This document shows, piece after piece, positions 7,572 through 34,758 of a stretch of DNA of 64,000 nucleotides. The position numbers and the translations under genes are program-made. The notes beneath the pieces were generated by a model. The model was not told the DNA's origin. It made no database searches and saw only the letters and a list, made by a program, of their open reading frames with translations. Every line of letters starts with the position of its first letter. Position 1 is the first letter of the stretch. The stretch is from Nitrosopumilus sp. (lineage in GTDB: Archaea; Thermoproteota; Nitrososphaeria; Nitrososphaerales; Nitrosopumilaceae), in the NCBI GenBank assembly GCA_965219345.1, contig OZ244732.1, positions 1,632,001 to 1,696,000 on the forward strand, in the 5' to 3' direction.

Positions 7572-9257
7572 TTGACACAAACATCAATGAGCGAGCCAAA
7601 GTCAGATACTCTGGATCTCATACCGGTAAGAATGCTTACACAGTATGCATACTGCAAGCGCCTGGCATACATGGAATGGGTGCAAGGCGAGTTTGAGTAT
7701 AATGCAGACGTAGTAGACGGCAAGTATCAGCACAGAAATGTAGACAAGCCGTCTGGAACAAAACAGACTGATCAGGACACAGATGAAAAGATTCATGCAA
7801 GATCAGTCACCATGTCAGATGCAAAACTCGGACTCGTATCTAAGATGGATCTGCTTGAGATGGAGGGAAATACCGCAACTCCGATAGAATACAAGCGTGG
7901 AAGCACTCCCAAGAATCCTAACAGGACGTATGAGGATCATGTCGTGCAGGTGTGTGCACAGGGACTGTTGCTTCGCGCAAACGGATACACATGCACCAGA
8001 GGCATTGTCTACTACATATCATCAAAGCAGAGAATAGAAGTCAATCTAGATGATGAGACGGTAAAAAAGACAAAACAGATGATCATGGAGATGAGGGAGA
8101 TGGCAAGTACTGACATGATGCCGCCTCCTCTTGTAGACAGTCCAAAGTGTCCGCGATGTTCTCTTGTCGGCATATGTCTGCCAGACGAAACAAACATGCT
8201 ATCCAAAAACGTGAGCCATATGAATAAGGATCAGATCCGCAGGATGTACCCAATGCGAAACGATGCCATCCCGATGTACGTGCAGGAGCAGGGGGCATAT
8301 GTAACAAAATCCGGAGAATGCATCCACGTAAAGACAAGAGAGGGATCTGTAAAAAAAGTCAGGCTAATTGACATCTCAGAGATCACAGTGTTTGGAAACG
8401 TACAGATAACAACCCCTGCAATACGGGAACTGTGCAACAGAAACATTCCCATCTGCTACATGACATACGGAGGATGGTTTACCGGCATGATTTCAGGACT
8501 GTCCCACAAGAATGTGGAGCTTCGCATAGGCCAGCACAGAATATACGAAAAGAAGAATGCATCTATGGCAATAGCTCGCGAGATTGTGTTTGCAAAGATA
8601 AAAAATTGTGTAACAATGCTGCGCAGAAACCACAAATCTCCCCCAAAAGACAAGATAGACGAGCTGGACGGATTTGCAGAGCGAGCACGTACTGTCAGGC
8701 AGTATGAGACACTTCTGGGAATAGAAGGAATGGCAGCTCGCATATATTTTTCAGAGTTTAACGGTATGGTAAAATCGGAGTCGATGTATTTCGAGTTTGT
8801 AGGCAGAAACAGGAGGCCTCCAAAGGATCCAGTCAATGCAATTCTGTCTTTTTTGTATGCGATGCTGACAAGGCAGGCGGTGACTACTGTGAGCATGGTT
8901 GGCCTTGATCCATATCTGGGGTATCTTCACAGGCCAAAGTATGGCAAACCTGCACTTGCGCTTGATCTGATTGAAGAATTTCGGCCAATTGTGGCAGATT
9001 CTGTCTGCATCACGCTTATCAATAACGGAGAGATAACCCCATCAGACGTGATAAAGACACGCTTTGGTGTGAATCTCACAAGTAATGGAAGGCGTAATGT
9101 GATAACTGCATATGAAAGGCGGATGGACACTACCATAACACATCCGATTTTGGGTTATGCTGCAAGTTATAGGAGGGTTATGGAGACGCAGGCAAGATTA
9201 CTCTCCAGACACATCCTAGCGGAGATCCCGGCATATCCTGCATTTAGGACAAGGTGA
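7572..9257 (+). CDS. cas1: CRISPR-associated Cas4-Cas1 fusion (type I-G); ATG at 7587 is an alternative start
   Basis: N-terminal Cas4 (YCKR, DLLE...PIEYKRG, QVCAQ, KCPRCSLVGIC Fe-S cysteines); C-terminal Cas1 (LLGIEGMAARIYF, RNRRPPKDPVNAILSFLY, GYLH, LALDLIEEFRP). Confidence 0.97.
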   Translation: MTQTSMSEPKSDTLDLIPVRMLTQYAYCKRLAYMEWVQGEFEYNADVVDGKYQHRNVDKPSGTKQTDQDTDEKIHARSVTMSDAKLGLVSKMDLLEMEGNTATPIEYKRGSTPKNPNRTYEDHVVQVCAQGLLLRANGYTCTRGIVYYISSKQRIEVNLDDETVKKTKQMIMEMREMASTDMMPPPLVDSPKCPRCSLVGICLPDETNMLSKNVSHMNKDQIRRMYPMRNDAIPMYVQEQGAYVTKSGECIHVKTREGSVKKVRLIDISEITVFGNVQITTPAIRELCNRNIPICYMTYGGWFTGMISGLSHKNVELRIGQHRIYEKKNASMAIAREIVFAKIKNCVTMLRRNHKSPPKDKIDELDGFAERARTVRQYETLLGIEGMAARIYFSEFNGMVKSESMYFEFVGRNRRPPKDPVNAILSFLYAMLTRQAVTTVSMVGLDPYLGYLHRPKYGKPALALDLIEEFRPIVADSVCITLINNGEITPSDVIKTRFGVNLTSNGRRNVITAYERRMDTTITHPILGYAASYRRVMETQARLLSRHILAEIPAYPAFRTR

Positions 9258-9261
9258 GAGG

Positions 9262-9549
9262 TTGCGCAACAGATACTTTGTGTGTTACGATGTTTCAGAT
9301 CCGCAGCGGCTTGCGCAGACATACAAGAAGATGAAAGGATACGGAGAAGCAGTACAGTATTCCGTGTTTGCCTGCGATCTAAATGACAAGGAGATCATAA
9401 TTATGAAGGAGGATCTGGGGAACATATTAAACCTAGAAGAGGACAGAATTTTGATGATCAACATCGGATCGGTGGACAAAAGCAAGGATCGTGTGTCCAC
9501 TATGGGCATGTCGCTTGAAACACAAAAGGAGGCATCCATAGTGATATGA
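9262..9549 (+). CDS. cas2: CRISPR-associated Cas2
   Basis: YFVCYDVSD...R...KKMKGYGEAVQYSVF; follows cas1. Confidence 0.96.
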   Translation: MRNRYFVCYDVSDPQRLAQTYKKMKGYGEAVQYSVFACDLNDKEIIIMKEDLGNILNLEEDRILMINIGSVDKSKDRVSTMGMSLETQKEASIVI

Positions 9550-9727
9550 TAAAGACGATGCGAGATGTCGTGACTCATCGCATCTACGAAGAAGCGCTTG
9601 CAGATGTGTTTTATGGTAAAAAAAATATGCGTAAAATATACTTGCACGGTATGACCAAAACGTCGGCAAACAAAGAAAAAACAACGAAGAGCGAAAATTT
9701 CTTGACGAATCCTGAGAAAATGACAGG
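9550..9727 (+). promoter_or_regulatory. CRISPR leader
   Basis: A-rich non-coding segment between cas2 and first repeat; GATGCGA...TCGCATC inverted repeat; repeats end in ATTGAAGC on +, and the degenerate repeat lies at the far end. Confidence 0.8.
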
Positions 9728-12700
9728 ATTTCCATAACGAAAAAGTTATGGCCCCATTGAAGCTTTTACCTCGAATATTGAAAAGTCTATTCTAACACCT
9801 TGAATTTCCATAACGAAAAAGTTATGGCCCCATTGAAGCAATGCAAATCGAAAATAATTATGCTACAATCGGCAGAATTTCCATAACGAAAAAGTTATGG
9901 CCCCATTGAAGCACAAAAGTCAATCTTCACTTTCTCCTTGGATTTTTGATTTCCATAACGAAAAAGTTATGGCCCCATTGAAGCTCTTCTTTGTTTCCTG
10001 CCATAATTATTCAGAACAATCAGGATTTCCATAACGAAAAAGTTATGGCCCCATTGAAGCTAGTAAGATATTGTAAGGCGTCTTGCTCATCATCTCGATT
10101 TCCATAACGAAAAAGTTATGGCCCCATTGAAGCTCCTCTTCGTCTAAAGTTCCTCGAAGAAGAAAATTCCAAATTTCCATAACGAAAAAGTTATGGCCCC
10201 ATTGAAGCTTTGACAAGTCTACAACAGTACCTGAGGTGTGTAAAATTTCCATAACGAAAAAGTTATGGCCCCATTGAAGCACGGATGTGGATATGAGACA
10301 CATGAAAGGAGTCCCATAATTTCCATAACGAAAAAGTTATGGCCCCATTGAAGCTTCAAGCTGAATTGATAGTCCCTCCAGTGCTCTATCCCTTATTTCC
10401 ATAACGAAAAAGTTATGGCCCCATTGAAGCATTAATTTCAGTGCCAATAACAATTGATTTTTTGGTTAAATTTCCATAACGAAAAAGTTATGGCCCCATT
10501 GAAGCGATACCAGTATCGATTTGTAGCCTTTGCCCCATATACTTAATTTCCATAACGAAAAAGTTATGGCCCCATTGAAGCTCCAGTTCCTTGCCCTTTA
10601 GGCCGTCATCCCACTCGAAATTTCCATAACGAAAAAGTTATGGCCCCATTGAAGCCTCGATGGACTCCTCTATTTCTCCCTGGGCTGATTTATTTCCATA
10701 ACGAAAAAGTTATGGCCCCATTGAAGCTTAATTCCTGATGTTGTTGCTCAAGAAACTGCGGCGGAATTTCCATAACGAAAAAGTTATGGCCCCATTGAAG
10801 CAGATAAAACATGAAGGATCAAATTAAGACAAGGCCCATTTCCATAACGAAAAAGTTATGGCCCCATTGAAGCTCCCTAGGGGAATCGATTACATTCCCA
10901 TTAGGAAAATTTCCATAACGAAAAAGTTATGGCCCCATTGAAGCACTTTTTTGGGACAAGTTGTGCATTATTACAAAAAGGCAAATTTCCATAACGAAAA
11001 AGTTATGGCCCCATTGAAGCAAAGTATAGTTACAAAATTATGTTAACACAAAAAAGAAATTTCCATAACGAAAAAGTTATGGCCCCATTGAAGCCGTGAC
11101 ACCTTTGCAATTCCCCCCGCCAATTCCAACAATTTCCATAACGAAAAAGTTATGGCCCCATTGAAGCTCTGTTCTGGAGGAAAGTTAGTATCAGTGTATG
11201 ATGCCGAATTTCCATAACGAAAAAGTTATGGCCCCATTGAAGCTTCCCTCAGGATCAATAAACACCTGCTCTGACATTAATTTCCATAACGAAAAAGTTA
11301 TGGCCCCATTGAAGCAGATCACTAAATTCCAATGATGTGTTTGCCAGTGTCTGATTTCCATAACGAAAAAGTTATGGCCCCATTGAAGCCATCATCATCG
11401 ATTCCATCATCATCGATTCCATCATATTTCCATAACGAAAAAGTTATGGCCCCATTGAAGCATTTTTTCGGCGGTGCTAACCATGTCGATCATAACGAAT
11501 TTCCATAACGAAAAAGTTATGGCCCCATTGAAGCAAAGACTGGCAGTAACTACTAGGTCTACTCCCTTTTTTTAGCATATTTCCATAACGAAAAAGTTAT
11601 GGCCCCATTGAAGCTTTTCTATGTTTGCCGACTTTATTATATCCCAGTTCAACCCCAATTTCCATAACGAAAAAGTTATGGCCCCATTGAAGCGTTTTTG
11701 GCGGTGTTTCCTCCTCCACCAACGGATGTGATTTCCATAACGAAAAAGTTATGGCCCCATTGAAGCTGTCGTAACTATCACCGGTGCCTGCGATGGTTCT
11801 GCATTATTTCCATAACGAAAAAGTTATGGCCCCATTGAAGCATAACAAAGGAATTGCTGCCGGCCATATCACGGCAGATTTCCATAACGAAAAAGTTATG
11901 GCCCCATTGAAGCCTCCTCCTCCTTCCCCCATTTGTCCTGCAGAATCCATTGATTTCCATAACGAAAAAGTTATGGCCCCATTGAAGCGGTAAGCCCCTT
12001 TACGGAGATAATTTGGAGGATAGTAATTTCCATAACGAAAAAGTTATGGCCCCATTGAAGCTCACGGGACAGTCCCGCGGTACGGGTGGAACCGAGATTT
12101 CCATAACGAAAAAGTTATGGCCCCATTGAAGCATTGAGTGTTCTTGCGTTGCTTTGGTGTGCTGTGCTACATTTCCATAACGAAAAAGTTATGGCCCCAT
12201 TGAAGCTGATTTTCCAGCCGTTTTTACGACGGCCTTAGTATTTAATTTCCATAACGAAAAAGTTATGGCCCCATTGAAGCGAATAAAATTTTGGGTGATA
12301 TGGTTAATCCAAAAATATTTCCATAACGAAAAAGTTATGGCCCCATTGAAGCCGGTATTGGTACTAGTTCCGGTATTGGCTCTTCCGGATTTCCATAACG
12401 AAAAAGTTATGGCCCCATTGAAGCATGGGCTTGCTGGGTGTTCATCCTGCTTTCATCGTAGATTTCCATAACGAAAAAGTTATGGCCCCATTGAAGCCTA
12501 CTTCCTCGAGATGGACACTTGTAATATATTTAAAGTTCGTAATTTCCATAACGAAAAAGTTATGGCCCCATTGAAGCACATTTACCAGTTTCATCAAAAT
12601 AGTGCATACAATCACATTTCCATAACGAAAAAGTTATGGCCCCATTGAAGCTCTTTTGTTGCTGAGTGCATGTACCTTGGAGCGAGAAAATTTCCATAAC

Positions 12701-15700
12701 GAAAAAGTTATGGCCCCATTGAAGCAACGAATTCGGTAGGCTTACATCACCCACTACGGACGGGAATTTCCATAACGAAAAAGTTATGGCCCCATTGAAG
12801 CCCAGTCTTCCCGCTTTAGCTCCAGGATTCCCGTAGTTATCAATTTCCATAACGAAAAAGTTATGGCCCCATTGAAGCCCATGCAGGCCGTTAGGTCGCT
12901 GCGCACTTGTGACAAATTTCCATAACGAAAAAGTTATGGCCCCATTGAAGCAATTTTCTCATGGTTGCTTGACAGGGTCAATACCTCCATATTTCCATAA
13001 CGAAAAAGTTATGGCCCCATTGAAGCCTTTTTTCGTTAATCGCGAAAGTGCCGAATAAACCGAATTTCCATAACGAAAAAGTTATGGCCCCATTGAAGCT
13101 TGCCTTCCAATTTTTAATACAGTTTCTTCTCCAAAATTTCCATAACGAAAAAGTTATGGCCCCATTGAAGCGAAACGCAATCGGCACGGACATCAACCCA
13201 AAGGCAATTGAGCTGTGTCTGCAGATTTCCATAACGAAAAAGTTATGGCCCCATTGAAGCTTTCCCATGCCGCTAAACGCGGTGAGCGTCTAACAATTGC
13301 GGCCCAAATTTCCATAACGAAAAAGTTATGGCCCCATTGAAGCAAAAGTTGGGAATTTATTACCGAATCTGCCAAACTGAATTTCCATAACGAAAAAGTT
13401 ATGGCCCCATTGAAGCTTATCATGGATAATGTCGCCAAATTGCCTACATTTTTTATTTCCATAACGAAAAAGTTATGGCCCCATTGAAGCTCGCTCATGT
13501 CACCGCCGCCGCCTCCAAGCATTCCGCATTTCCATAACGAAAAAGTTATGGCCCCATTGAAGCTAGTTTGTTGGCAAGTAGTTCAAAGGTTGCTGTTTCT
13601 TATTTCCATAACGAAAAAGTTATGGCCCCATTGAAGCATATCTGGTCCATCCTACATTATCTGGTATGTCTGGTATTTCCATAACGAAAAAGTTATGGCC
13701 CCATTGAAGCAGAATCATATAATCTAACACCGTGGAGTCTGTGGATGATTTCCATAACGAAAAAGTTATGGCCCCATTGAAGCTTGCTCCTACTCTGTCC
13801 CTTACTACTTCTGAGATGAATTTCCATAACGAAAAAGTTATGGCCCCATTGAAGCATGGTCATGTGAGAACCACCTTCGAATTGAAGGTTACCAATTTCC
13901 ATAACGAAAAAGTTATGGCCCCATTGAAGCTCGAAAACAGGTGCCCATCCGTCAACCTCATTTCCTCCACTGGATTTCCATAACGAAAAAGTTATGGCCC
14001 CATTGAAGCTTAGTTTCTGCTGTTTTTCCGTCTCGTTTTGCCTTAACCAATTTCCATAACGAAAAAGTTATGGCCCCATTGAAGCACCTAATCCTTCCAT
14101 AGGAACGCAATAGCACCTCCTAATTTCCATAACGAAAAAGTTATGGCCCCATTGAAGCACGATTGATGAGCAAACACCAACTTTACCAGACATACATTTC
14201 CATAACGAAAAAGTTATGGCCCCATTGAAGCAAAGAATAATCAACATCGCTAAACGGAACAAATGGAAATTTCCATAACGAAAAAGTTATGGCCCCATTG
14301 AAGCGGCTAAAATTACAGCATCATAGATGTAGTTGCTGCGGGATTTCCATAACGAAAAAGTTATGGCCCCATTGAAGCACATCGACAATAATTCGTGAAG
14401 AATTGAAATATTCGAGATTTCCATAACGAAAAAGTTATGGCCCCATTGAAGCTTGTCCAGCAAATGTTAGAAATAGAAAGTTTGTTGATTTCCATAACGA
14501 AAAAGTTATGGCCCCATTGAAGCCCGTGTTGACGACCATTACAATTTGTATGCCAAATTACAAATTTCCATAACGAAAAAGTTATGGCCCCATTGAAGCG
14601 TAATTGCGTGAATACATACTGGAAAAGTGCATATCCCAATTTCCATAACGAAAAAGTTATGGCCCCATTGAAGCGATTTCATTTTGTAAAATTTGGAGTG
14701 CCTCATTATCATTTCCATAACGAAAAAGTTATGGCCCCATTGAAGCGGTGGAGTTGTAATGCTGAGGTTTGGGGAAATACAGAATTTCCATAACGAAAAA
14801 GTTATGGCCCCATTGAAGCAGCGACCGGGAAAAAATCCGCGTCGATTGTAACGCGCGAATTTCCATAACGAAAAAGTTATGGCCCCATTGAAGCTCAGCC
14901 CCGAGCCCCCCCCCCCTAGTCGCAGATTAACCCCACATTTCCATAACGAAAAAGTTATGGCCCCATTGAAGCTTTTGATGGTCTAAATTTTCTAACGCCC
15001 TTTTCAAAAATTTCCATAACGAAAAAGTTATGGCCCCATTGAAGCTATTATAGGAATAAAGTTGAAGAGTGCATAGTTGCGACAAATTTCCATAACGAAA
15101 AAGTTATGGCCCCATTGAAGCTACCTATTGTTTTTACCGGCTTGATGATTTCACCGGCGATTTCCATAACGAAAAAGTTATGGCCCCATTGAAGCACTTT
15201 CAGTGTAGGAAACACGCAGAAAGACTAGTGAAATTTCCATAACGAAAAAGTTATGGCCCCATTGAAGCTGAAATCTTTGTCAGTCTTTATGGTTCGCCTA
15301 AAAATATTTCCATAACGAAAAAGTTATGGCCCCATTGAAGCAAAAACTCGAAGGCAATAACGGCCATAAAAAAAACTGATTTCCATAACGAAAAAGTTAT
15401 GGCCCCATTGAAGCCACCACCTCCATCAGCGCGTCATACACCGTGGTCTCCTCGCCATTTCCATAACGAAAAAGTTATGGCCCCATTGAAGCAACGTGTA
15501 CGGTTACAATGAACCAGATGATGAACCCATATTTCCATAACGAAAAAGTTATGGCCCCATTGAAGCGTATTTCATAGTGATCACACTGAGAATAATTTCT
15601 ATAAATTTCCATAACGAAAAAGTTATGGCCCCATTGAAGCGCCCCAACTGAAGTAATCATCCTCAATCACGGTGTCAATTTCCATAACGAAAAAGTTATG

Positions 15701-18700
15701 GCCCCATTGAAGCATGAAGTATTGAGTGCCAGTCCCTGATTCCACTGAAATTTCCATAACGAAAAAGTTATGGCCCCATTGAAGCTCTAATATCGCTCTA
15801 AAGGCAATTCCATTTAGCGCAATTTCCATAACGAAAAAGTTATGGCCCCATTGAAGCATCTTTTCATCATCATTACCATGAGGACAACTACAAGCATTTC
15901 CATAACGAAAAAGTTATGGCCCCATTGAAGCATCAAAATCAATCCCATATTCGCGCTTGTACCGATATCATTTCCATAACGAAAAAGTTATGGCCCCATT
16001 GAAGCGGAGCGCCAACGATTGTAAACGCGAGTCCTGTAGTTATTTCCATAACGAAAAAGTTATGGCCCCATTGAAGCTCTCACCTTCCGCTGATTCCCAT
16101 CTTACCAGTAGGTGAGATTTCCATAACGAAAAAGTTATGGCCCCATTGAAGCAGCCTAGTGTGTGTAACCGCCCGCTGAAAAGGACTATTATTTCCATAA
16201 CGAAAAAGTTATGGCCCCATTGAAGCAAAACCTTTGGCCATAACAAATTATGTTGCTGTTGCTACATTTCCATAACGAAAAAGTTATGGCCCCATTGAAG
16301 CTCTTTTTGTTGGGTCTTCCATGTCGTGATAATTTGACATTTCCATAACGAAAAAGTTATGGCCCCATTGAAGCGCCCTCCTCTGTCATTTGTCTAGTCC
16401 TAAAGCCGAGATTTCCATAACGAAAAAGTTATGGCCCCATTGAAGCTTAGTTCGGAAGGATCAAAGGGAAAAATATCGGACAATTTCCATAACGAAAAAG
16501 TTATGGCCCCATTGAAGCTGGTATGTACCGGGCGCGGACGGAAAAAGCGCCAAAATTTCCATAACGAAAAAGTTATGGCCCCATTGAAGCTCCATATCTC
16601 GCCTTTCGTTGTTTATCTAATCTAAATTTCCATAACGAAAAAGTTATGGCCCCATTGAAGCGAAGTTGCTACTCCTTTTGTCTTTTCCACAAAAACCGTA
16701 TTTCCATAACGAAAAAGTTATGGCCCCATTGAAGCACTGCCGTAAATTCCGACTAATCCAGCCATACCAAAATTTCCATAACGAAAAAGTTATGGCCCCA
16801 TTGAAGCTTGGATCTGCTATCTTTCCCATGGTGGTGACAGCCCGATTTCCATAACGAAAAAGTTATGGCCCCATTGAAGCGGTGTATACAACGATAATAA
16901 CAGCCAGGTATTTGGCAGATTTCCATAACGAAAAAGTTATGGCCCCATTGAAGCAGTTATCTTGGGTGGATCAATCGGTTTTTTATTTCAGGTAGAATCT
17001 GAATTTCCATAACGAAAAAGTTATGGCCCCATTGAAGCATGGTCATGTGACTTCCGCCCTCATATTGCAAATTGCCGTATTTCCATAACGAAAAAGTTAT
17101 GGCCCCATTGAAGCACAAGTCTTTACGGTTCGCCCAAAAATTCTCGTTATATTTCCATAACGAAAAAGTTATGGCCCCATTGAAGCTCAGTACTCCTGAT
17201 AGCACGAGCAATTAAAGCACTAGATTTCCATAACGAAAAAGTTATGGCCCCATTGAAGCTAATATCCATTCTCTAATTTTGTTTTTTCTGCATATCTATT
17301 TCCATAACGAAAAAGTTATGGCCCCATTGAAGCTGTGAGAATGAGCTGTCGGATTTCAGGATGTTTAGATTTCCATAACGAAAAAGTTATGGCCCCATTG
17401 AAGCTGTGATAAAGCCATCTGCAACCAGCACGTAATTTCTATTTCCATAACGAAAAAGTTATGGCCCCATTGAAGCGTGTAATTGACTTGAGAAATTGTT
17501 TTTGATTGTTCCAAATTTCCATAACGAAAAAGTTATGGCCCCATTGAAGCTGTAATTGACCTAACCAATCTACTGGAGGGTCATTAATTTCCATAACGAA
17601 AAAGTTATGGCCCCATTGAAGCTGAGAGGTCCATGAAAAATTTGGGAATCAAGGCGGTATTTCCATAACGAAAAAGTTATGGCCCCATTGAAGCCAGAAA
17701 CTTTGATACAAAGTGAAAGCATCAAACTTGATTTCCATAACGAAAAAGTTATGGCCCCATTGAAGCGTCTATTTGGCGAATCTAAGGGATTCATCTAAAT
17801 GTCCGATTTCCATAACGAAAAAGTTATGGCCCCATTGAAGCTTGGATACTTTGACGATGCTGAAGAGGTTGAAAAATATTTCCATAACGAAAAAGTTATG
17901 GCCCCATTGAAGCTTTAATTTCGGTATGTTTAGGACGCCAGATGAAACAATTTCCATAACGAAAAAGTTATGGCCCCATTGAAGCTGATGCTAGTTTTGT
18001 TAAGGGGAATTAATTTTTCCTTGATTTCCATAACGAAAAAGTTATGGCCCCATTGAAGCAGGGTCTTGCTGGACACACGACTGGGATTTCTTGATGAGAT
18101 TTCCATAACGAAAAAGTTATGGCCCCATTGAAGCACAGACTGGGATTGGGATGTTTCAGGTGACCTAAATAATTTCCATAACGAAAAAGTTATGGCCCCA
18201 TTGAAGCCCTGGTTTTCCACTTCCTATAATTCCTGGACAAATTCAGATTTCCATAACGAAAAAGTTATGGCCCCATTGAAGCTTCGGAATGTGGTTTCTT
18301 AATCAATCGGACGAATCTGAATTTCCATAACGAAAAAGTTATGGCCCCATTGAAGCAAATTCCTCTGATGTTGCCAGTGTTCCTCTTTTGGTATTTCCAT
18401 AACGAAAAAGTTATGGCCCCATTGAAGCTCTGTTTAGTAAAATGATGGATTACTGGGGATTGACCACGATTTCCATAACGAAAAAGTTATGGCCCCATTG
18501 AAGCGGAGACAACTAGAGAAATAATATAATGACAGAAATACCTATTTCCATAACGAAAAAGTTATGGCCCCATTGAAGCACGACAATAATAACATTCTAC
18601 TTCCCGACCCCTGGATAAATTTCCATAACGAAAAAGTTATGGCCCCATTGAAGCCCAACTACAAGAACGTAAATTGTCTTGTAATAGATATTTCCATAAC

Positions 18701-21700
18701 GAAAAAGTTATGACCCCATTGAAGCAGAAATAAAAAAAAGAAAAAGGGGTGATTGATTAATCAATTTCCATAACGAAAAAGTTATGGCCCCATTGAAGCC
18801 CAAACGGCAGTAAAGCCGCCCGTCGCGAATGAACCGACTCTAATTTCCATAACGAAAAAGTTATGGCCCCATTGAAGCAAAAGAAATTGTCTTATAAGTT
18901 TACAAAGAACCTCTTAATTTCCATAACGAAAAAGTTATGGCCCCATTGAAGCTGCCTCATTTGCTGAGCGTTCGTACGACTCAATCGCAATTTCCATAAC
19001 GAAAAAGTTATGGCCCCATTGAAGCGCTAAATCTGTCAATGATATGCTAGATAGCAGAGCCAATTTCCATAACGAAAAAGTTATGGCCCCATTGAAGCTG
19101 GTATGTCATGCTCCAGGATTTGGGCATCCGATTTCATTTCCATAACGAAAAAGTTATGGCCCCATTGAAGCAGGTGGATCGATTGGTTTTTTATTTCAGG
19201 TTGAGAGCGAATTTCCATAACGAAAAAGTTATGGCCCCATTGAAGCTCACCATCTCAACAGGCATTTATTGAATCTCGAGAGATTTCCATAACGAAAAAG
19301 TTATGGCCCCATTGAAGCATCCCGTGACACAAAGAATAATTCCACAACCATACCCAATTTCCATAACGAAAAAGTTATGGCCCCATTGAAGCTTGTTCTG
19401 AGAGCGCCACATTCAGAAACATGAGAGAATTTCCATAACGAAAAAGTTATGGCCCCATTGAAGCAAGATTATTGGCGTCGCCGGATATGATAACTACGGG
19501 AAATTTCCATAACGAAAAAGTTATGGCCCCATTGAAGCAATTATTCACCGAATCAGAAATTAGCCTAACTCAGGTTCCCTATTTCCATAACGAAAAAGTT
19601 ATGGCCCCATTGAAGCAGCAATTTATCAAGGAACATCACAAGGAGATGTCGATTTCCATAACGAAAAAGTTATGGCCCCATTGAAGCGCCCTCTATATCT
19701 CCAGAATTGCCATGCTGAGTTTCATAATTTCCATAACGAAAAAGTTATGGCCCCATTGAAGCAAGGCATCTGTTGCGACATTGTCTAATCCACCGTTCCT
19801 TATTTCCATAACGAAAAAGTTATGGCCCCATTGAAGCCTTGCGAATTCGTGAGCATCATCAACCACCATCACCAAAATTTCCATAACGAAAAAGTTATGG
19901 CCCCATTGAAGCAAGGTGATGGACTCACCACACGATCTATTATTTCACAATTTCCATAACGAAAAAGTTATGGCCCCATTGAAGCTTTGGCCATTCCGCC
20001 ATAATTCGATTTTTCCGGTTCCGGCGGATTTCCATAACGAAAAAGTTATGGCCCCATTGAAGCTCTTCTTCAAGATAATCTACCTCACGGAATCCATGAA
20101 TTTCCATAACGAAAAAGTTATGGCCCCATTGAAGCTCAGTGTGGTCTTTGTGGTGGTGCTGCCAGTTAGCGCGATTTCCATAACGAAAAAGTTATGGCCC
20201 CATTGAAGCTGGTATTATGGACGGCGCTGTCAATTCTCATCTATATTTCCATAACGAAAAAGTTATGGCCCCATTGAAGCATCCAATGGAGGGGTAAGAA
20301 CAGGAGGAGGCAATTCCATATTTCCATAACGAAAAAGTTATGGCCCCATTGAAGCTCGTATGCTCTGCCAATTTGTCTGAGTGATGGCCTTATTTCCATA
20401 ACGAAAAAGTTATGGCCCCATTGAAGCCCCAAAACAAGAATGGTGGGGGTGGTGATGGCAGGGACAAATTTCCATAACGAAAAAGTTATGGCCCCATTGA
20501 AGCGATAGTTTGCCATGTATTATTAAATCGTCACATTCAGATTTCCATAACGAAAAAGTTATGGCCCCATTGAAGCTACGAATAGTAAGTTTGCCCTTCA
20601 CAAAGTGATGGAATTTCCATAACGAAAAAGTTATGGCCCCATTGAAGCGTATCAATTATAATATTATTTCTGGTACAATATTTGAGATTTCCATAACGAA
20701 AAAGTTATGGCCCCATTGAAGCCCGAATATCGACATGGCACTGAAGGTCATAGAGTCTATTTCCATAACGAAAAAGTTATGGCCCCATTGAAGCATTGTA
20801 ACGACTACGTGTGTACCTATGTTTCCTACCCTAATTTCCATAACGAAAAAGTTATGGCCCCATTGAAGCTACTGCATCGTATAGACTCTGTGTGTAGGCA
20901 TACTCATTTCCATAACGAAAAAGTTATGGCCCCATTGAAGCCATCTCTCAGTATTTCCGCATTCCCAGCATCCTTTGATTTCCATAACGAAAAAGTTATG
21001 GCCCCATTGAAGCGAGTGAGATTGGAAACGAAAATGCAGACACATTGAAAATTTCCATAACGAAAAAGTTATGGCCCCATTGAAGCAGCGAACCGTCCTA
21101 TTCCTACTTTCAGTACTATTCTTATTTCCATAACGAAAAAGTTATGGCCCCATTGAAGCGGATATAAGGTGAGGATGGATATCGCAATTAATGGGCATTT
21201 CCATAACGAAAAAGTTATGGCCCCATTGAAGCTGAGCATCCTCGGCACCATGCCCTGTGAATTCCCTCAGAATTTCCATAACGAAAAAGTTATGGCCCCA
21301 TTGAAGCTAGTACGCTAATTACATCTTGTGCTATTTGTTCGCGCAATTTCCATAACGAAAAAGTTATGGCCCCATTGAAGCAGTAAATGTGAACTGTATC
21401 ATTAATTTCAAGAAAACTATTTCCATAACGAAAAAGTTATGGCCCCATTGAAGCCTTGCCAAAACACGTAAAAAATGTAGGCAATTTGGCGAATTTCCAT
21501 AACGAAAAAGTTATGGCCCCATTGAAGCGTCAACGCCTTCCATGGACATTGGGACCAACACTAAATTTCCATAACGAAAAAGTTATGGCCCCATTGAAGC
21601 ATTGTTACCCTTACTGCCGTTCACCAAAAGCTATCGCCTATTTCCATAACGAAAAAGTTATGGCCCCATTGAAGCGAAAAAATCTCTGAGGCAATTTCGA

Positions 21701-21821
21701 CGCACACACCAATTTCCATAACGAAAAAGTTATGGCCCCATTGAAGCAGGTGTAAGATTCCATCGTGAGATGAATTCTGTTGTGGATTTCCATAACGAAA
21801 AAGTTATGGCCCCATTGAAGC
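9728..21821 (+). CRISPR. CRISPR array, about 164 repeats / 163 spacers (manual count), 36-bp repeat ATTTCCATAACGAAAAAGTTATGGCCCCATTGAAGC
   Basis: Near-invariant repeat with 7-bp hairpin CCATAAC/GTTATGG; unique spacers mostly 35-42 nt, up to 53 nt; one variant repeat at 18690-18725. Confidence 0.99.
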
Positions 21822-21908: not shown

Positions 21909-23324
21909 TTAAATGGTTTCTGGGACAAACATCCCCAAACCAAAATGAGCACCATGGCCAAAAGATAGAGGCCCTTGTATTTCCTCATCAAATTCAATCA
22001 ATACATCATATGCGCCAAATCCTGCAAGTTTGTCCTTTCTCCAACGACTAAACTGGATTGGTTTTAAGCCACATTTCATAGTAGAGGTGCTATCATTAAT
22101 TTCAATATTTTTGATTTTTGCTGTATCGCAAAATCTCCTTTTAATCTCCAGTCTTATCTGATCTTCTGGACCATCAACTATGTGTTTTTCCCCTTTACCT
22201 CTTACCTTGACATGTCTATTAAGTACAAATGGTGTAACAGATCTCCATCTTTTTGATTTTTGCAAAATTAAAATTTTTTCGAAATCTTCGAGTTCTCCGT
22301 ATCCCTGAAATACCAGACTAAATCCGTTTTGACCATATTGAACATGTCTCATAGAGGCTAATGCGTTCATCTCCTTTTCACCAAATGGATCTTTTGCAAC
22401 TATTGTTATATGATCTAAAATATTGTCTCCATCCTCATCGGTTGGAAGAAAAAATGCATGTCTATGGTTGTCTTTAAGATATGTGCTATCTGTTTGTTTT
22501 CCTGTGAATACTTGTGATGTCTCATTTTTATTTTCCTTTCCATAAATTGACATAGCAACTCTTCTAAGAAAATCACCCACATGGAGTGATTTAGTAACTT
22601 TTGGCCTTACGCTTCCTGCAATACGATATCTGACGACATTTATCGGTTTTGGTGGTACTGATGTGCTTTCCAACTGTTTTGTAAGCAAGTCCTTTGGAAG
22701 CCCATACTGTATCCATTTACTCCCCGGAGGATTCATAATTTTTTCTTTGTGAAGATCTCCAGTCTCAACGCAAATGTCCTCAAATGATACATTCTTGTTT
22801 GTAACTAGAACCTGAACGATATTTTCATTTCCTATGTGTACGTCATCCTCTAACTTGGAACAGTTTGGGGTGGGTGGTTTATCTACGCGTTGTACTTTAC
22901 ACCATGATTCTGCCCGTCCAAAGTATGACATGCTATTGATCACGATATCCAAAATTTCTTCTTGTTTCGTCTCTAATTTGACATCATTCCATATTGCAAC
23001 AACACACTCTTGAGTGTTTATCACCATAAAAGAGTCAATTATCTTTGTGGTTTCTTCTCCTCCCCAAACTGGCATGTAATGTCTAGTATGTGACTGTATT
23101 GCATTTGGCAGGTTAAATGAAACATCACATTCTGAGATAGCCTTTAGTATGGGCCACATTTCATCATATTTTATGTTATTTGATGTTTTTTTCCAAGTTG
23201 CAATTATTGCTCGCAATATACGCCAAGGGGATGGAGGCCAGTCAATTATCCCTTCATTTACATTTCTACCCCACTGTGTTGCATGATATCTACCAGCTAA
23301 AAATCTAAACGATAGTGCAAGCAT
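21909..23324 (-). CDS. csb2: Type I-G Csb2 (Cas5/Cas6 fusion)
   Basis: F.AGRYHATQWG...WPPSPWRILRA, YFGRAESW, HRHAFFLP, W.SVTPFVL, C-terminal GPLSFGHGAHFGLGMF glycine loop. Confidence 0.93.
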   Translation of the reverse strand: MLALSFRFLAGRYHATQWGRNVNEGIIDWPPSPWRILRAIIATWKKTSNNIKYDEMWPILKAISECDVSFNLPNAIQSHTRHYMPVWGGEETTKIIDSFMVINTQECVVAIWNDVKLETKQEEILDIVINSMSYFGRAESWCKVQRVDKPPTPNCSKLEDDVHIGNENIVQVLVTNKNVSFEDICVETGDLHKEKIMNPPGSKWIQYGLPKDLLTKQLESTSVPPKPINVVRYRIAGSVRPKVTKSLHVGDFLRRVAMSIYGKENKNETSQVFTGKQTDSTYLKDNHRHAFFLPTDEDGDNILDHITIVAKDPFGEKEMNALASMRHVQYGQNGFSLVFQGYGELEDFEKILILQKSKRWRSVTPFVLNRHVKVRGKGEKHIVDGPEDQIRLEIKRRFCDTAKIKNIEINDSTSTMKCGLKPIQFSRWRKDKLAGFGAYDVLIEFDEEIQGPLSFGHGAHFGLGMFVPETI

Positions 23325-23332
23325 GTTATTTT

Positions 23333-24304
23333 TTATGAACCCTGTTTACTTTTATTTTTTGTTTCATATTTGATGCTAATTGACTTATTTGGATCGAACT
23401 TACATTTAGATATAAGATCTTTTATCTTCGAGTTTAATTCAGACATGTCAGGTAATGTAAATCCTTCAGGAGATATAACTTTGGGTTCACTCTTAATCTG
23501 AAGATCGCATGCAGTTCGCAAACGCAATCCTGTTTCCAAGAATTTTTGAATCTTCCACAATGCCAGATTTATCAGTAATTCTGTCTGATGTTTTTCAAGA
23601 CAGTAACTCCTTATCTGTTGTAAATCTAGATTAAAAAATGCTGTTATGGATTCGGCAGTGTATTCTATACGTGAAAATGGAACGTTTCCTTGACCTTTTG
23701 ATGCACCACCTGTATCATCATCCTTACCTGGCTTAACATGATCAATTTTTGCACCACCACTTGTAACATTCTTTACATTTTTTGCCTCTATGAATGCTGA
23801 GAGTGCACGTGGAATTTTTATTCTTCCTTCCGCAATTTTTTTTGCAATCCAAACTCCATGTAACAAAGAATTAACATCCAATTCAAATATCAAAGGAGAT
23901 GTTTTAACAAGATCCGTGTTCCATCTTCCATCTTTATTTTGTAATCCATTTAATTTCTTTTTGATTTCCTCATTGCCACCTTCAAGGATATAAAACGAAC
24001 CGATTCGATGTGATTCACGAACTGAATTTGTTATTTGTTCATTATTGATATTGTTGACCTTTATCATTGGCAATCCATTTAATTCATCAACAAAGTTTGT
24101 CTTGTCTTTGTTCAAGCAAACTTCTTCCAAACGATTTGCCATTGATTGTGGTGATTCAACTAAAAGTGATATTGTGCTGTCATGTAATGGAATCTCAGCT
24201 GCACCCAAGTCTGGAAATCCAGTTGGCTGGAATCTATCTCCTTGTATAGGCTTTAATTCCACTTCTAATAATAATCTGCCACTGTTCTCTAAACTGTCAC
24301 TCAT
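23333..24304 (-). CDS. csb1: Type I-G Cas7 (Csb1)
   Basis: DRFQPTGFPDLGAA, LLVESPQSMANRLE, SHR, DVNSLLHGVW, GNVPF, LRLRTACDL. Confidence 0.94.
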   Translation of the reverse strand: MSDSLENSGRLLLEVELKPIQGDRFQPTGFPDLGAAEIPLHDSTISLLVESPQSMANRLEEVCLNKDKTNFVDELNGLPMIKVNNINNEQITNSVRESHRIGSFYILEGGNEEIKKKLNGLQNKDGRWNTDLVKTSPLIFELDVNSLLHGVWIAKKIAEGRIKIPRALSAFIEAKNVKNVTSGGAKIDHVKPGKDDDTGGASKGQGNVPFSRIEYTAESITAFFNLDLQQIRSYCLEKHQTELLINLALWKIQKFLETGLRLRTACDLQIKSEPKVISPEGFTLPDMSELNSKIKDLISKCKFDPNKSISIKYETKNKSKQGS

Positions 24305-24328: not shown

Positions 24329-26482
24329 TTAAATTATATTGTATTTGATTCTGGGTTTTGCAATATGGTTAATCAGTTTCTCCATATCTGATTTATGTAA
24401 TGGAAAAAGAACAGCAGCTGTAAGTTTACTTATCATATGTTCTGGTATCTCCTGTGTTGAGTTTGATGAATACTTTGAGCTATCATATGTCAATATACTT
24501 GTACCAGTTATGTAAAGACGGCGCTGTGATATCTTGTGTGCTAAATTTATCTTACCTGATTTTAGCAGTCCTACTATAGATGGCTCAAATTTTGTAATAT
24601 TAGGGTCAAATGAGACTGGAGGAAAGTTTGACTTTATGGATATATATGTCTCTGGTATGAGCTCAGGAATTTCCCATATTTCTCTATAATTCTCATAGTC
24701 TAAATGATTATCATAATTAATCATTGAAAGTGGAAGTAATAGATTGCTTATCTTTTCATAGTCCAATTGACCATTTAGGAATAACAATACATCATTTACA
24801 GGCGCAGATACTTTTGATTTCAGTGGGATTGTTTTAAATTTTTGTATTTGGGCATCAATACATCGTCTTTCTAATACTGCAATCATGTTTTTAACGGTAT
24901 TGTTTTTATTCCATACTGCATGAGGACTTGATGGCTTCCATTCTAGTTTGTGGGTATACCTTATCTGCTCTAAATTGTATCTTATAGGATACTGTCCATC
25001 ATCATCTAAAATTGATGCCAAGGATACAGCAAGTCTGAATTCAGGTGTTTTATCATAACATGCACTTAGCCAATCAAAGGATAATTTCTGGAATGGTTGA
25101 ATCTTTTCTCTGATGGATGAGGAATTAGATATGATCCATTCTATCTTTCCTAAAATGATCAGGATCTCTTGCAAATATTGTTCCTTAGGATGTGTACAGA
25201 ATTTTATGATTGCGCCATCTATGTTACGTAATAATGATCTTATTGTTATTGGGAGGTTCTTCACTTTGCGGATTTTTTCCAACCACTCATCTATGTCTGT
25301 CAATAAATTGACTTGATGGTTTTTTATAGTATCTATCCTACCTAAACTAGTAGCAAGAAACGCCAATCCTTTTCTTTCAAACACACCAAATCTTTGAAAT
25401 CCGTATATGCCTCGCTCTGTACCCAAGCTTGTCAATGCTCTAACAAAATCAGTACCTGTGCTGGAATGTTTTTTGCCAATCTGTGATCTTCCTTCATTGA
25501 AGATATATTTTATTTCATCATATGTTGCAGGATTATCCCAGAGTGGAATCCATAACTCACCTCTAGACTTTTCTGCAGAGGATGAACCATATCCTGCCAT
25601 GGACGAATGCACTGTGAATGGGAATGCAGCTTTTGTTAAAATAGAACGGCGTGATACACTGCCTGCAAAAAGCAGGGTTCCCTCTATCATGAGAATATAG
25701 TCCCACGGATTTATCAATGATATTTTTTCTTTTTCGAAACCGGCACTTGTACAGTTTGATCCCTTGTATCCGTCAGGGTAAAAATATGCAGAGCTATTCT
25801 CCATTAACTTTACAGAATTACCAAACAACGAACCTTTAATCCAGTCTTTCTTCTCATCATCGGTGGAATTTTTATCTGGTAAAATACATTTACATATACA
25901 TTTCATAAAATTTTCTGAAATCTCAAAATTTCCATCATTTCCACAACTTCCTAAAATGGTACCATACGATGGTTTTGTAGATGTAATGACATACATTGCA
26001 TCAAACCAAGGTACTAATTTTTCAGTAATCTTGTTGCGGAATTGACTGAGCAGTAGATCTTTGTTATTCTTTATTTTCTTTTTGAGTTCTTTCATACGCT
26101 CCTCATCTTTTTTCTTGATTAGTTCAGCATATTCAGAAATGTTATCTTGGAGAATTTCTCGTACGTCTTCAAAAACCTCACAATACTCCTTTAAACGTTT
26201 ATTGTCTGATTGTTCTATCTCATACACAACAGAGTTGTCCACATCAAAAAAACCACTACCTCCATTCCAAGGGGATACTAGTGGTGTTGGTTTATACTGT
26301 TTTAGAAAAAAATCAAGTAATTCATCTTTGCTCAATTTTGTATGCAATACAAACACGTCTCTTTCCCAGTTTGCCGTAATTTCTTGGTCCATCTGTTCTG
26401 CTAGGATGCGAAAAATTCCAAGTGCTTTTAGATTCATCATAAGTGATTCTGGAATACATCCGTCCAGTCGTATGTCTATCAT
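24329..26482 (-). CDS. csx17: Type I-G large subunit Cas8g (Csx17)
   Basis: LKALGIFRIL, YKPTPLVSPWNGGSGF, GNDGNFE, INPWDYILMIEG, RGELWIPLW, PEFRLA motifs. Confidence 0.92.
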   Translation of the reverse strand: MIDIRLDGCIPESLMMNLKALGIFRILAEQMDQEITANWERDVFVLHTKLSKDELLDFFLKQYKPTPLVSPWNGGSGFFDVDNSVVYEIEQSDNKRLKEYCEVFEDVREILQDNISEYAELIKKKDEERMKELKKKIKNNKDLLLSQFRNKITEKLVPWFDAMYVITSTKPSYGTILGSCGNDGNFEISENFMKCICKCILPDKNSTDDEKKDWIKGSLFGNSVKLMENSSAYFYPDGYKGSNCTSAGFEKEKISLINPWDYILMIEGTLLFAGSVSRRSILTKAAFPFTVHSSMAGYGSSSAEKSRGELWIPLWDNPATYDEIKYIFNEGRSQIGKKHSSTGTDFVRALTSLGTERGIYGFQRFGVFERKGLAFLATSLGRIDTIKNHQVNLLTDIDEWLEKIRKVKNLPITIRSLLRNIDGAIIKFCTHPKEQYLQEILIILGKIEWIISNSSSIREKIQPFQKLSFDWLSACYDKTPEFRLAVSLASILDDDGQYPIRYNLEQIRYTHKLEWKPSSPHAVWNKNNTVKNMIAVLERRCIDAQIQKFKTIPLKSKVSAPVNDVLLFLNGQLDYEKISNLLLPLSMINYDNHLDYENYREIWEIPELIPETYISIKSNFPPVSFDPNITKFEPSIVGLLKSGKINLAHKISQRRLYITGTSILTYDSSKYSSNSTQEIPEHMISKLTAAVLFPLHKSDMEKLINHIAKPRIKYNII

Positions 26483-28935
26483 GATTTTGATCTTTCATCC
26501 TCACTTGCCCTAGAATCTGCAGCACGTATTACTGCCTCAAGATATGCAAGTTTGAATGGACCATGTTTCTTGAGCAATCCTAATGTTATCTGTAGCCATG
26601 ATCTGCTGTTATCTTTTTTTCCAATTCTTGTAATGGATGCATCTATCTTGATCTCTTTATCTATATTTTCTTGCAATTTTTCCTCCTTACTTTCTTTTGA
26701 TTCTTTCATTTTATTGGATAGGAATATCGAGAGTTTTTCTGTTTCATCCAATTTCATTCCTAGAATATAACTGCCATCAGAATTGATGTATTTTGTGCCT
26801 TTCTTTTCAGGAAGAGAACGCATGGATAGACGCATCTTGCCATGGTGCGATGCAATGAGGTATGCTGCAAGATCTACATCAGTCTGTATATTGAGTTTTA
26901 AAAATGCCAGAGCACTTGCAGCCTCATGTCGAAAATTCTTACGTTCATGATTTGCACGTCCCCCTCTTTTTGCCCAAATCTCATCGCACGACACAGATGT
27001 GTCATCAGTGTTTTTTAGCATTGTATTTTGAAATACAGTATGTGCCTTGCCAATATCATGGTATTTTGCAACAATAATCATGACATCCTTTAGTTCTGTC
27101 AAATGTTCTAGTTGCTCAAGAATCTTTTTTGTCTTGGTAAGCACATGCACTGTATGATCATTGAGTGTAATCCAATCAGAATTCTCTGATATGGGATCTG
27201 AATTCAAAGATTCCTCTTCTGATTCTGATATTGGTTTGGTTTTATTGATATTATCTGGATGTGATTTGTCTTCCAAATCTTTTTCAACTGGTTTTACATA
27301 ATCATCTAATTTCACATGCCATCCTTTCTCTTCAGTGTATCCTCCACTTTTGGAATATATCAAATACGTCTGACCTGGATGCACATCATAACTCCTTTCC
27401 CAATATCCATCTAGCACATCATATTTCCATATACTATTTTTTTTAATAAATTCTTTTATGTCTGATATTGGCACATTACAAATCTCTTCATTTCGTATCT
27501 TATGTTTTGGCGGTCGCTGTTTTTCATCCCATTCTCTCCATAGGGCACCAACATCTGTAGTTTTTTCTAATGAACGAACATATCTTGATACATCAGTATG
27601 ACTGCCGGAAAGATCAGGAGTACTATCAAACAATCCAAGTACATCAGACTCTCTTATTACTATTTCATGGGTAATTGTTTCATCAATTTTTGGTATGGAT
27701 TTTGGCGAGAGGGATTTGCCTATTGATTTATCTATTTTCTTTTCAGATCTTTCCATATCTTCTTTCTCATATGGGATGTATTGATTTTCTGCAAGCCTTA
27801 TAAAATAAACTTTAGAGTCGTCATGCTCTCCTTTACGGTTACATCTTCCAAATCTTTGTACCATGCTAGACCACGGTGCCATCTCGGTGATCAGAGTCTT
27901 GGCAGAAATGTCAACACCTGCTTCAATTACCTGTGTAGATACTATGATCATATCCTGTTTTTCATCGGATTTTTCTGAGATATTCTGAATCTTTTTGTTT
28001 ATGTTTGCCCTCTCTTTTCTTCTGAATCGAGAATGTATCAACATTATGTCTGTTTTTTCTGAGATTTTTTTCAATTCTTCAAAAAGGCTCTGAGCTCGCT
28101 TTACAGTATTTACTATGATCAAGGTAACTGTTCCAGTATCATGTTTCTTTTTGATCTCTATTGCATCATTTTTTGTGTACTCATCTTTGTGTTTCGAAAG
28201 TTTTAATTCCTCTAGTCGTTTTTTTGCATTGTTGCGCTTTGAAAGAGATTCGTTTTCTGTATCTTCTTTGGACAACTCAAACTTTGTATATTTCTCAGGA
28301 TCCGAGTCCACAGTCTTCAACCATTGAGGGTTTATAGTAGCTGACATCCACACTGTCTTGTGTGGTGCATATGTCTTCTTTCTATCTCTAAACTCCTCTA
28401 ATTGTATAGATGTGGCAAGCCCGTTATGCATAAGTTGAATCTCATCCATTATCCACAGGCAATCATTGTTTAACAATCCAAACTCAACTGGCCATTGAAA
28501 TGGATTCATAGCATATCCTCTATTCAGTGCACGTGAAAGAAGCATGTCCTGAGTACCAATTATAATTGCATCGCTTTCAGGATATAGCCTATAATCATAT
28601 TCTGCGTTTCCGCCCATAATAGTGATCACTTTGATTTTATTTTCTAGTTTGAGGTTCTCAATCCATCTCTTAACTTTAGACACTGTTTGCTCTACTAAAA
28701 CGCGCATAGGCAAACAATAGACTAGTCTTCTTGGTGTGTTTTTGCGAACATCTTGATTTGAGTAAATACGTCTCCATACATATATTGCAAGTACTGCAGC
28801 TTCTGTTTTGCCTGCACCTGTAGGAATGCTGAGAATCTCCGAAATGTCTTTTGCGTTTGCTAATTTTTCTTGATAGGGATATGGTGCGAATCCACTTGCA
28901 TTTTTGAAAAACTCCTTAAATGTAATCTGTTCCAA
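26479..28935 (-). CDS. cas3: Type I-G Cas3: SF2 helicase with C-terminal HD nuclease
   Basis: PTGAGKT, DEIQ, MSAT, QRFGRCNR; C-terminal HDIGK, RHEAAS, HHG, RAAD; HD-after-helicase order is diagnostic of I-G. Confidence 0.96.
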   Translation of the reverse strand: MEQITFKEFFKNASGFAPYPYQEKLANAKDISEILSIPTGAGKTEAAVLAIYVWRRIYSNQDVRKNTPRRLVYCLPMRVLVEQTVSKVKRWIENLKLENKIKVITIMGGNAEYDYRLYPESDAIIIGTQDMLLSRALNRGYAMNPFQWPVEFGLLNNDCLWIMDEIQLMHNGLATSIQLEEFRDRKKTYAPHKTVWMSATINPQWLKTVDSDPEKYTKFELSKEDTENESLSKRNNAKKRLEELKLSKHKDEYTKNDAIEIKKKHDTGTVTLIIVNTVKRAQSLFEELKKISEKTDIMLIHSRFRRKERANINKKIQNISEKSDEKQDMIIVSTQVIEAGVDISAKTLITEMAPWSSMVQRFGRCNRKGEHDDSKVYFIRLAENQYIPYEKEDMERSEKKIDKSIGKSLSPKSIPKIDETITHEIVIRESDVLGLFDSTPDLSGSHTDVSRYVRSLEKTTDVGALWREWDEKQRPPKHKIRNEEICNVPISDIKEFIKKNSIWKYDVLDGYWERSYDVHPGQTYLIYSKSGGYTEEKGWHVKLDDYVKPVEKDLEDKSHPDNINKTKPISESEEESLNSDPISENSDWITLNDHTVHVLTKTKKILEQLEHLTELKDVMIIVAKYHDIGKAHTVFQNTMLKNTDDTSVSCDEIWAKRGGRANHERKNFRHEAASALAFLKLNIQTDVDLAAYLIASHHGKMRLSMRSLPEKKGTKYINSDGSYILGMKLDETEKLSIFLSNKMKESKESKEEKLQENIDKEIKIDASITRIGKKDNSRSWLQITLGLLKKHGPFKLAYLEAVIRAADSRASEDERSKS

Positions 28936-34458: not shown

Positions 34459-34758
34459 ATGGCAATATCTAAAGCCAAAAGAGCAGCAGCAGCTAAAAAA
34501 GCAGCAAGAACTCGAAAGAGAAATGCAGCAGCTAAAGCAGCAGCAGCAGCAAAGACAAGAGCATCTCGAAGGAGAAAAGCAGCAGCTAAAAGAGGTGCAG
34601 CAACTCGTAAGAGAAAGGTATCACGTAAAGCTCCAAAAAGAAAGGCAGCTAAACGTAAAGCTCCAAAAAGAAAGGCAGCTAAACGTAAAGCTCCAAAAAG
34701 AAAGGCAGCTAAACGTAAAGCTCCAAAAAGAAAGGCAGCTAAACGCAGAAAACGTTAA
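34459..34758 (+). CDS. Histone H1-like Lys/Arg/Ala-rich basic protein
   Basis: 99 aa, almost entirely K/R/A, with KRKAPKRKAA repeats. Confidence 0.85.
   Translation: MAISKAKRAAAAKKAARTRKRNAAAKAAAAAKTRASRRRKAAAKRGAATRKRKVSRKAPKRKAAKRKAPKRKAAKRKAPKRKAAKRKAPKRKAAKRRKR
34621..34740 (+). repeat. Coding tandem repeat, 4 x 30 bp
   Basis: AAACGTAAAGCTCCAAAAAGAAAGGCAGCT units (first copy begins TCA). Confidence 0.92.

Follow-up and report, generated by a model that had tools for sequence, protein, structure and literature searches.

Synonymously diverged twin spacers in a long type I-G CRISPR array of a Nitrosopumilus genome

The window analysed here is a 64,000-nucleotide (nt) stretch of a Nitrosopumilus sp. 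genome (contig OZ244732.1, positions 1,632,001–1,696,000) that contains one very long type I-G CRISPR array. Three consecutive spacers of this array, 98, 99 and 100, each have a twin elsewhere in it (128, 56 and 75, respectively) that encodes the same or nearly the same peptide with different codons. The six segments named in the original prediction are six whole spacers (Table 1), and the alignments confirm that they form three synonymously diverged twin pairs. We consider it probable that the three pairs are independent captures from relatives, about 70–80% identical, of a mobile-element or virus lineage, and that spacers 98–100 were taken in one episode from one variant.

Twin spacers in the window and in related arrays

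The members of pair a, spacers 98 and 128, are identical at 31 of 39 nt. They start 9 nt apart, end at the same base and both encode GGSIGFLFQVES. As had been predicted, all five of their changed codons are synonymous, one of them a TCT/AGC serine switch. Spacers 56 and 99 (pair b) share their first base and are identical at 27 of 39 nt. The reverse-complement frames read GNLQFEGGSHMT and GNLQYEGGSHMT, i.e. GNLQ[F/Y]EGGSHMT, with seven synonymous codon changes and one conservative replacement (Y/F), and the expected common start and related peptides are both present. Pair c, spacers 75 and 100, is offset by 10 nt and agrees at 22 of the 27 overlapping nt. Both members encode SLYGSPKN, with two synonymous changes that bear out the third-position differences claimed for this pair; the codon preceding this peptide is unlike (GTC, Val, versus ACA, Thr). 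When the three pairs are pooled, differences at codon positions 1, 2 and 3 number 3, 3 and 14, and the changed codons comprise 14 synonymous changes and one replacement (binomial p ~3e-7, with six frames allowed for).

In an all-versus-all nucleotide comparison of the 163 spacers, the highest scores are 26 (98/128), 23 (50/159), 20 (75/100) and 16 (56/99), followed by 15 and 13, and the scores in six shuffled spacer sets are 13–16. On nucleotides alone pair b is therefore within the chance range, and its significance derives from the protein-level score and the full-length, in-register alignment. At the peptide level four pairs are above chance, the three twin pairs and 50/159, so that three of the four involve spacers 98–100. 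The leading peptide scores are 63 (56/99), 60 (98/128), 44 and 43 (75/100), and the next is 38. The best peptide score reaches at least 43 in one of 70 shuffled sets (maximum 47), and the second-best is never above 38. Shuffled sets, the control that the original prediction had proposed, thus do not reproduce such matches. Spacers 50 and 159 (13417–13454 and 21455–21492) overlap by 23 nt without mismatch, on opposite strands. Spacers 42 and 132 (12802–12842 and 19465–19502) overlap over 15 nt, with a nucleotide score inside the shuffle range. Spacers 96 and 126 were considered as a fourth neighbouring twin (peptide score 36, 13/14 nt) and were dropped, the score being within that of shuffled sets and the reading frame shifting between the two matching blocks.

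CRISPR array DNA is not translated. The protein-preserving pattern must thus have arisen in the source genomes, which makes the twin partners separate captures, each from a diverged homologue. Both the excess of synonymous changes and the crowding of differences into third codon positions point to purifying selection on the source. The alignments therefore support the twins as independent captures, the sampled coding sites being homologous and having diverged under such selection. Of the repeated encounters with one virus or element family that had been predicted, the separate captures and the synonymous excess stand; the assignment to a single family is at most putative, no protospacer having been found in the collections searched (see below).

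The twin pattern is general in related arrays. Type I-G arrays related to that of the window occur in 11 other genomes of the genus, and the pooled set contains 1153 spacers from 14 arrays in 12 genomes. Pairs were called at a peptide score of at least 42, and those of low complexity, His-runs among them (W23, G186:23, G428:110), are left out of all counts. Among the first six arrays, no identical spacer is common to different genomes. The pooled set yields 43 pairs, 39 within one array and four between arrays. Those within arrays comprise 12 identical duplicates, two exact partial overlaps and 25 diverged twins; the last are spread over 9 of the 14 arrays, each pair inside a single array. Non-identical twins therefore number 27 within arrays (65,189 possible pairs) versus four between them (598,939 possible pairs), an odds ratio of 62. 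Differences between the 25 diverged twins again favour the third codon position (25/17/84 at positions 1/2/3). Twin divergence grows with distance along the array (Spearman 0.49, p 0.013, n = 25), also in the array of genome G406 alone (Spearman 0.77, p 0.0035, n = 12). The twins are few and pairs in one array are not independent, and we treat this trend as a lead.

Register of capture and the run of spacers 98–100

The diverged twins tend to share a start and not an end. Among the 22 same-orientation pairs, the start offset is 0 in 14 and ±1 in two, an in-register share that is an upper estimate because full overlaps score higher in detection, and the end offset is 0 in only five. Flanks read from offset twins carry TT at −2/−1 in five of nine usable cases (0.094 expected), a count that omits three rows of His-run pairs and six single-base rows. 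Non-array contigs from public sequencing runs that match spacers 119, 8 and 162 are preceded by ..CTTT(C), ..TTTTT and ..TTTTT, respectively. In published type I-G biochemistry a TTN motif lies upstream of the protospacer and spacers are 36 bp long (PMC6547450); Cas4 recognises and cleaves the motif end and the Cas1 domain cleaves the other end without sequence preference (PMC10504553). The leader-proximal register observed here fits motif-anchored capture by Cas4/Cas1, where the motif end would, as worked through from the geometry of integration, become the leader-proximal end of the spacer. Several points weigh against this: the detection bias just mentioned; pair 98/128, in which the starts differ, the ends agree and spacer 98 is 48 nt long; and the flanks themselves, which come from the diverged twin and not from the true source, and four of which lack TT. 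The exceptional pair may be a chance outcome or may stem from capture at a motif lying 9 nt further upstream.

A close counterpart among the systems compared is the type I-U (I-G) system of Geobacter sulfurreducens. It resembles that of the window in its Cas4/Cas1 fusion, Cas2, Cas3, Cas8, Cas7 and Cas5/6 fusion (PMC6547450), in its spacers of about 36 bp, and probably in an upstream T-rich motif (TTN in Geobacter) set by Cas4 (PMC6547450, PMC10504553). In that system the cut at the non-motif end shows no sequence preference, and priming has been demonstrated (PMC6547450, PMC10504553). The Geobacter system is bacterial and was assayed in Escherichia coli on plasmids, whereas the system of the window is known from sequence alone. 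The flanks also differ: TT lies at −2/−1 in most readable cases here, either one base off the Geobacter TTN or displaced by slippage.

We propose the following scheme for the window. The Cas4 domain of the Cas4/Cas1 fusion would select a T-rich motif lying 5′ and thereby set the leader-proximal end of the spacer, so that related invaders keeping the motif would be sampled at the same base. The other end would be cut by a ruler with a wobble of a base or two. The sources would be diverged relatives in which the protein is kept, from a lineage as yet outside public collections. The stretch between cas2 and the first repeat is presumably the leader, and because it sits on the cas2 side of the array, spacer 1 is presumed newest. 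Since the leader adjoins cas2, the order of capture would be 128, then 100, 99 and 98, then 75, and then 56. A single infection episode with one variant most likely supplied spacers 98–100; 128 would come from one earlier encounter, and 75 and 56 from two later ones, each with a relative 20–30% diverged. We infer the viral or mobile origin, the single episode for 98–100 and the order in time.

By permutation, a run of three twin-bearing spacers from three different pairs arises with p 0.002 when three pairs are counted and with p 0.007 when four are. Adjacencies between twin-bearing spacers number two in this array, with 0.34 expected, and the partner spacers 128, 75 and 56 are scattered through it. 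Other arrays count against a burst. In that of G406, the richest in twins, where 24 of 139 spacers bear them, adjacencies number 3 versus 3.97 expected, and no excess adjacency is seen in G406, G428, G186 or G160, so that the clustering consists of one run in five arrays tested. The adjacent twin-bearers of G406 (37–38, 81–82 and 101–102) were considered as further bursts and rejected, being at chance expectation. The clustering of 98–100 is suggestive, not established, and the predicted burst from one variant stands to that extent.

We regard coincidence as unlikely, though deserving consideration. Here the six spacers would be unrelated single captures from common, strongly conserved genes at favoured motif-flanked sites, and the adjacency would be due to chance. 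The size of the p-value, obtained for one array with five examined, agrees with this, as does the chance-level adjacency in G406. The exact start base common to most same-orientation twins could likewise mark favoured sites that are resampled without any link between neighbours. The count of adjacencies in the window speaks against it, and in a leader-ordered array neighbouring spacers are most simply read as the products of one infection.

Primed updating, to which we give about the same low weight, would link the captures to one another. Spacer 128, by then too mismatched (31 of 39 positions alike) to destroy a drifted variant, would still have recruited the interference complex and led to the capture of 100, 99 and 98; spacers 75 and 56 would have followed later, primed by 100 and 99. 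An older, partly matching spacer does exist, 128 for 98, and spacers 98–100 are consecutive, each with a partner of partial match, older in the case of 128 and newer in that of 75 and 56. The rise of twin divergence with array distance points the same way. Priming has been seen in a type I-G/I-U system following one mismatch in the protospacer (PMC6547450), and the same idea has been proposed for overlapping Legionella spacers (PMC5071653). However, priming would here have to act across 8–12 mismatches, only spacer 128 among the three partners is older than the run, and G406 lacks excess adjacency. Primed spacers of the type I-U system studied in the laboratory were spread evenly over the target and the priming site was not favoured (PMC6547450), so that repeated capture of one site does not count among the known signatures of priming. 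Priming is plausible here.

A more general form of this idea, which we hold to be somewhat less likely again, is that the type I-G arrays of these archaea ‘update’ their memories in nature: a drifted invader, no longer destroyed through an old spacer, would prime re-capture at the same motif-anchored site, and 98–100 would be one primed burst. If so, twins would be successive versions of one memory in a time-ordered array. Such an array would yield the synonymous divergence, per acquisition step, of an uncultured archaeal virus lineage, and a clock would show its first trace in the rise of divergence with distance (rho 0.49; 0.77 in G406).

Repeated same-site capture from related invaders is a real and expected kind of infection record, and its mechanism is not new. 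Type I-C and I-F arrays of Legionella pneumophila carry overlapping or repeated spacers against LME-1, read as repeated invasion by related elements; the older partners have mismatches, and priming by the older spacer was proposed (PMC5071653). In Legionella the target has been identified, and partners differ by a few escape-type changes in the motif or seed (PMC5071653), whereas the window has an archaeal host and a type I-G system, and its partners are 20–30% diverged with nearly all changes synonymous. A limited search of the open-access literature returned no paper on synonymously diverged spacer twins in type I-G arrays of archaea. What is added here is a genus-wide pattern with a motif-anchored register.

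Searches for the source genomes

Protospacers of the three peptides were absent from the collections searched, so that both a viral origin and a common replicon are putative. As degenerate patterns, peptides a and b had no target in IMG/VR, in metagenome contigs of the JGI or in GTDB species genomes. Peptide c was sought in the own genome and in IMG/VR (two extended patterns) and was found in neither. In the own genome (1.91 Mb) only the spacers themselves match. Searches with blastn gave no match at E 0.01 for the whole array against INPHARED phages or for 13850–21821 against PLSDB plasmids. A comparison of 13850–19250 (spacers 56–128 only) with 150 genomes of the genus returned only other arrays, lone repeats and short matches with E 0.003–0.7 per genome. 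IMG/VR contains no exact match to spacer 119.

Several candidate targets were rejected. Spacer 65 (26/30 nt in a 337-residue open reading frame, ORF) and spacer 102 (25/28 nt in a 266-residue ORF) were judged to match by chance, and the recurrence of these short matches was put down to conservation of the genes in relatives. A shortened pattern b retrieved four contigs, in three of which ..FEGGRHMTRM ends a sugar-nucleotidyltransferase/isomerase-like ORF, and GNLQ precedes it in none. We take this ending to be an RpiB-like motif. A shortened pattern a gave two matches, interrupted by stops or without GGS. A peptide that recurs across the arrays of relatives, IPLGxWDDP, led to four contigs with IP[LF]GxWDDP, on which the window peptides are at background (ungapped scores); against the spacers of the first six arrays, these contigs give no match longer than 21 nt.

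Public runs that hold this array (X6, X7 and X8) also contain non-array contigs that match spacers 119 (18505–18543; X6), 8 (10281–10318; X8) and 162 (21676–21711; X8), with flanks unlike the array on one or both sides. These are probably protospacers of co-occurring invaders. Since non-array contigs in these runs match other spacers of the array, the invaders of interest are probably recoverable from the same samples. Contigs of these runs end at repeats, which makes the order of spacers and the presence or absence of the 98–100 block unreadable, and no loose contig end at spacers 98–100 is among the matches listed. Spacer 70 (14895–14936) contains a run of 11 C residues, and one X8 contig is one C shorter there (position 14906).

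A close parallel comes from a sponge-associated Nitrosopumilus whose type I array has 158 spacers, for which ten viral contigs from that sponge provide matches (PMC11410982). Like the window, that genome pairs a very long type I array with an ammonia-oxidising archaeon, and the matched viruses were found only in the same holobiont (PMC11410982). Spacers that match viruses of their own holobiont only would explain why the general viral collections are empty here, which suggests that such invaders are local and unsampled. The available text of that report does not mention twin or synonymously diverged spacers, and no relation of its genome to the window is claimed.

Sampling is poor for the viruses and mobile elements of ammonia-oxidising archaea, whether marine or sponge-associated, and the invaders sought here are absent from the public viral, metagenome and genome collections searched. 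If the proposed captures are correct, each host lineage would meet its own returning, diverging family of invaders, and the type I-G system would sample the same motif-anchored sites over and over. A capture–recapture estimate, which assumes uniform sampling and is good to an order of magnitude only, puts the target space at ~89 kb for this array and ~22 kb for G406. The twin peptides could serve as probes for finding the invader family in holobiont viromes.

Targeting of cellular genes, from competing relatives or the host, in place of a virus or mobile element is very improbable. It would agree with peptides conserved in the manner of housekeeping proteins and with the lack of a viral match in the collections searched. 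The peptides themselves, however, are without match in the own genome. Peptide a occurs in none of the 150 other genomes of the genus and peptide b, at up to two mismatches, in none of 400 other genomes of the class, and neither is in the GTDB species set. The original prediction had named host genes as the competing target, and these searches gave no sign of them.

Duplication of repeat–spacer units within the array, by recombination or slippage and followed by drift, has precedents in relatives (in G466, 76–79 equal 80–83; three pairs in G240; single cases in G215, G406 and G172), but it is already contradicted by the synonymous pattern and has next to no probability: the 12 duplicated units of the relatives are letter-identical over their full length, whereas the three window pairs differ at 5–12 positions in a frame-dependent way (14 of 15 changed codons synonymous, with the TCT/AGC switch), have members of unequal length and, in two pairs, unlike start points, and non-coding array DNA has no reason for keeping a protein. 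The exact tandem duplications of the relatives lie in loci L056 (G466 76–83, 99–100 and 111–112), L054 (G240 39–45) and L052 (G215 54–55), and reflect true recombination between repeats or else artefacts of assembly.

The type I-G locus and other features of the window

The array belongs to a CRISPR-Cas system of type I-G (formerly I-U), with six type I-G cas genes that each exceed the curated NCBI (NCBIfam) cut-off (Table 1). The cas4/cas1 fusion and cas2 lie upstream of the array on the same strand, and csb2, csb1/cas7g, cas8g1/csx17 and cas3g lie downstream on the opposite strand. In Cas3g the HD domain (residues 609–714, Pfam) is C-terminal to the helicase, and Csb2 is without any Pfam match. 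Archaeal AmoA is encoded in the same genome and archaeal ribosomal proteins within the window; the host is therefore an ammonia-oxidising archaeon.

Table 1. Coordinates of the twin spacers and of the type I-G locus in the window
Feature	Position	Strand	Description
Spacer 98	16955–17002	+	48 nt, unusually long; sense frame ..GGSIGFLFQVES; twin of 128
Spacer 99	17039–17078	+	40 nt; reverse complement GNLQYEGGSHMT; twin of 56, same first base
Spacer 100	17115–17150	+	36 nt; encodes TSLYGSPKNSRY; twin of 75, offset 10
Spacer 128	19172–19210	+	39 nt; presumed older twin of 98, same last base
Spacer 56	13856–13894	+	39 nt; presumed newer twin of 99
Spacer 75	15269–15305	+	37 nt; presumed newer twin of 100
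CRISPR array	9728–21821	+	164 repeats of 36 nt, 163 spacers of 35–53 nt
Presumed leader	9550–9727	+	178 nt between cas2 and first repeat; basis, adjoins cas2, and + strand repeat ends in ATTGAAGC
cas4/cas1 fusion (Cas4g/Cas1g)	7572–9257	+	561 residues; Pfam Cas4 + Cas1; NCBIfam NF049935, 754 bits (cut-off 560)
cas2	9262–9549	+	95 residues; TIGR01573; ends 178 nt before first repeat
csb2 (Cas5-Cas6 fusion of type I-G)	21909–23324	−	471 residues; TIGR02165, 132.7 bits (cut-off 45)
csb1/cas7g	23333–24304	−	Pfam Cas_GSU0053; TIGR02570, 92.5 bits (above cut-off)
cas8g1/csx17	24329–26482	−	717 residues; TIGR04113, 563 bits (cut-off 150)
cas3g (helicase + C-terminal HD nuclease)	26479–28935	−	818 residues; Pfam; TIGR02621, 731.7 bits (cut-off 400)

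The repeat copies are identical in 163 of 164 cases, the single variant (G>A) being at 18690–18725. On the + strand the repeat ends 3′ in ATTGAAGC, and it folds into a 7-bp hairpin. Across the 12 genomes the stem occurs as CCATAAC/GTTATGG, CCGTAAC/GTTACGG, CTGTAAC/GTTACAG, CCGCAAC/GTTGCGG and CCACAAC/GTTGTGG, compensatory pairs that give covariation support for the hairpin. The loop is variable and the 3′ tail CCCCATTGAAG[C/G] is retained (window 9728–9763; L017–L019, L022, L024 and L052–L058). Lone repeat copies were met in genomes in which the searches returned no array, at L023 (G105:C1, ~1535367–1535402, one mismatch) and at G139:C1:2066163–2066194 (32/32 nt), and are possibly remnants of lost arrays. 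The commonest spacer length in the window is 36–38 nt, and unusually long spacers are found at 13172–13224 (53 nt), 13261–13307 (47 nt) and 16955–17002 (48 nt). Two long spacers, 47 and 48, are neighbours.

Outside the array, a gene for an IS1595-family (ISXO2-like) transposase lies at 29997–30707, about 1 kb past cas3g. A 42-bp unit is repeated 13.2 times (99% matches) at 402–955, within an ORF with a ribosomal L24/L26 KOW domain, giving the product a long repeat tail. A 30-bp unit occurs in 4.1 perfect copies at 34623–34745, in a small ORF (34459–34758).

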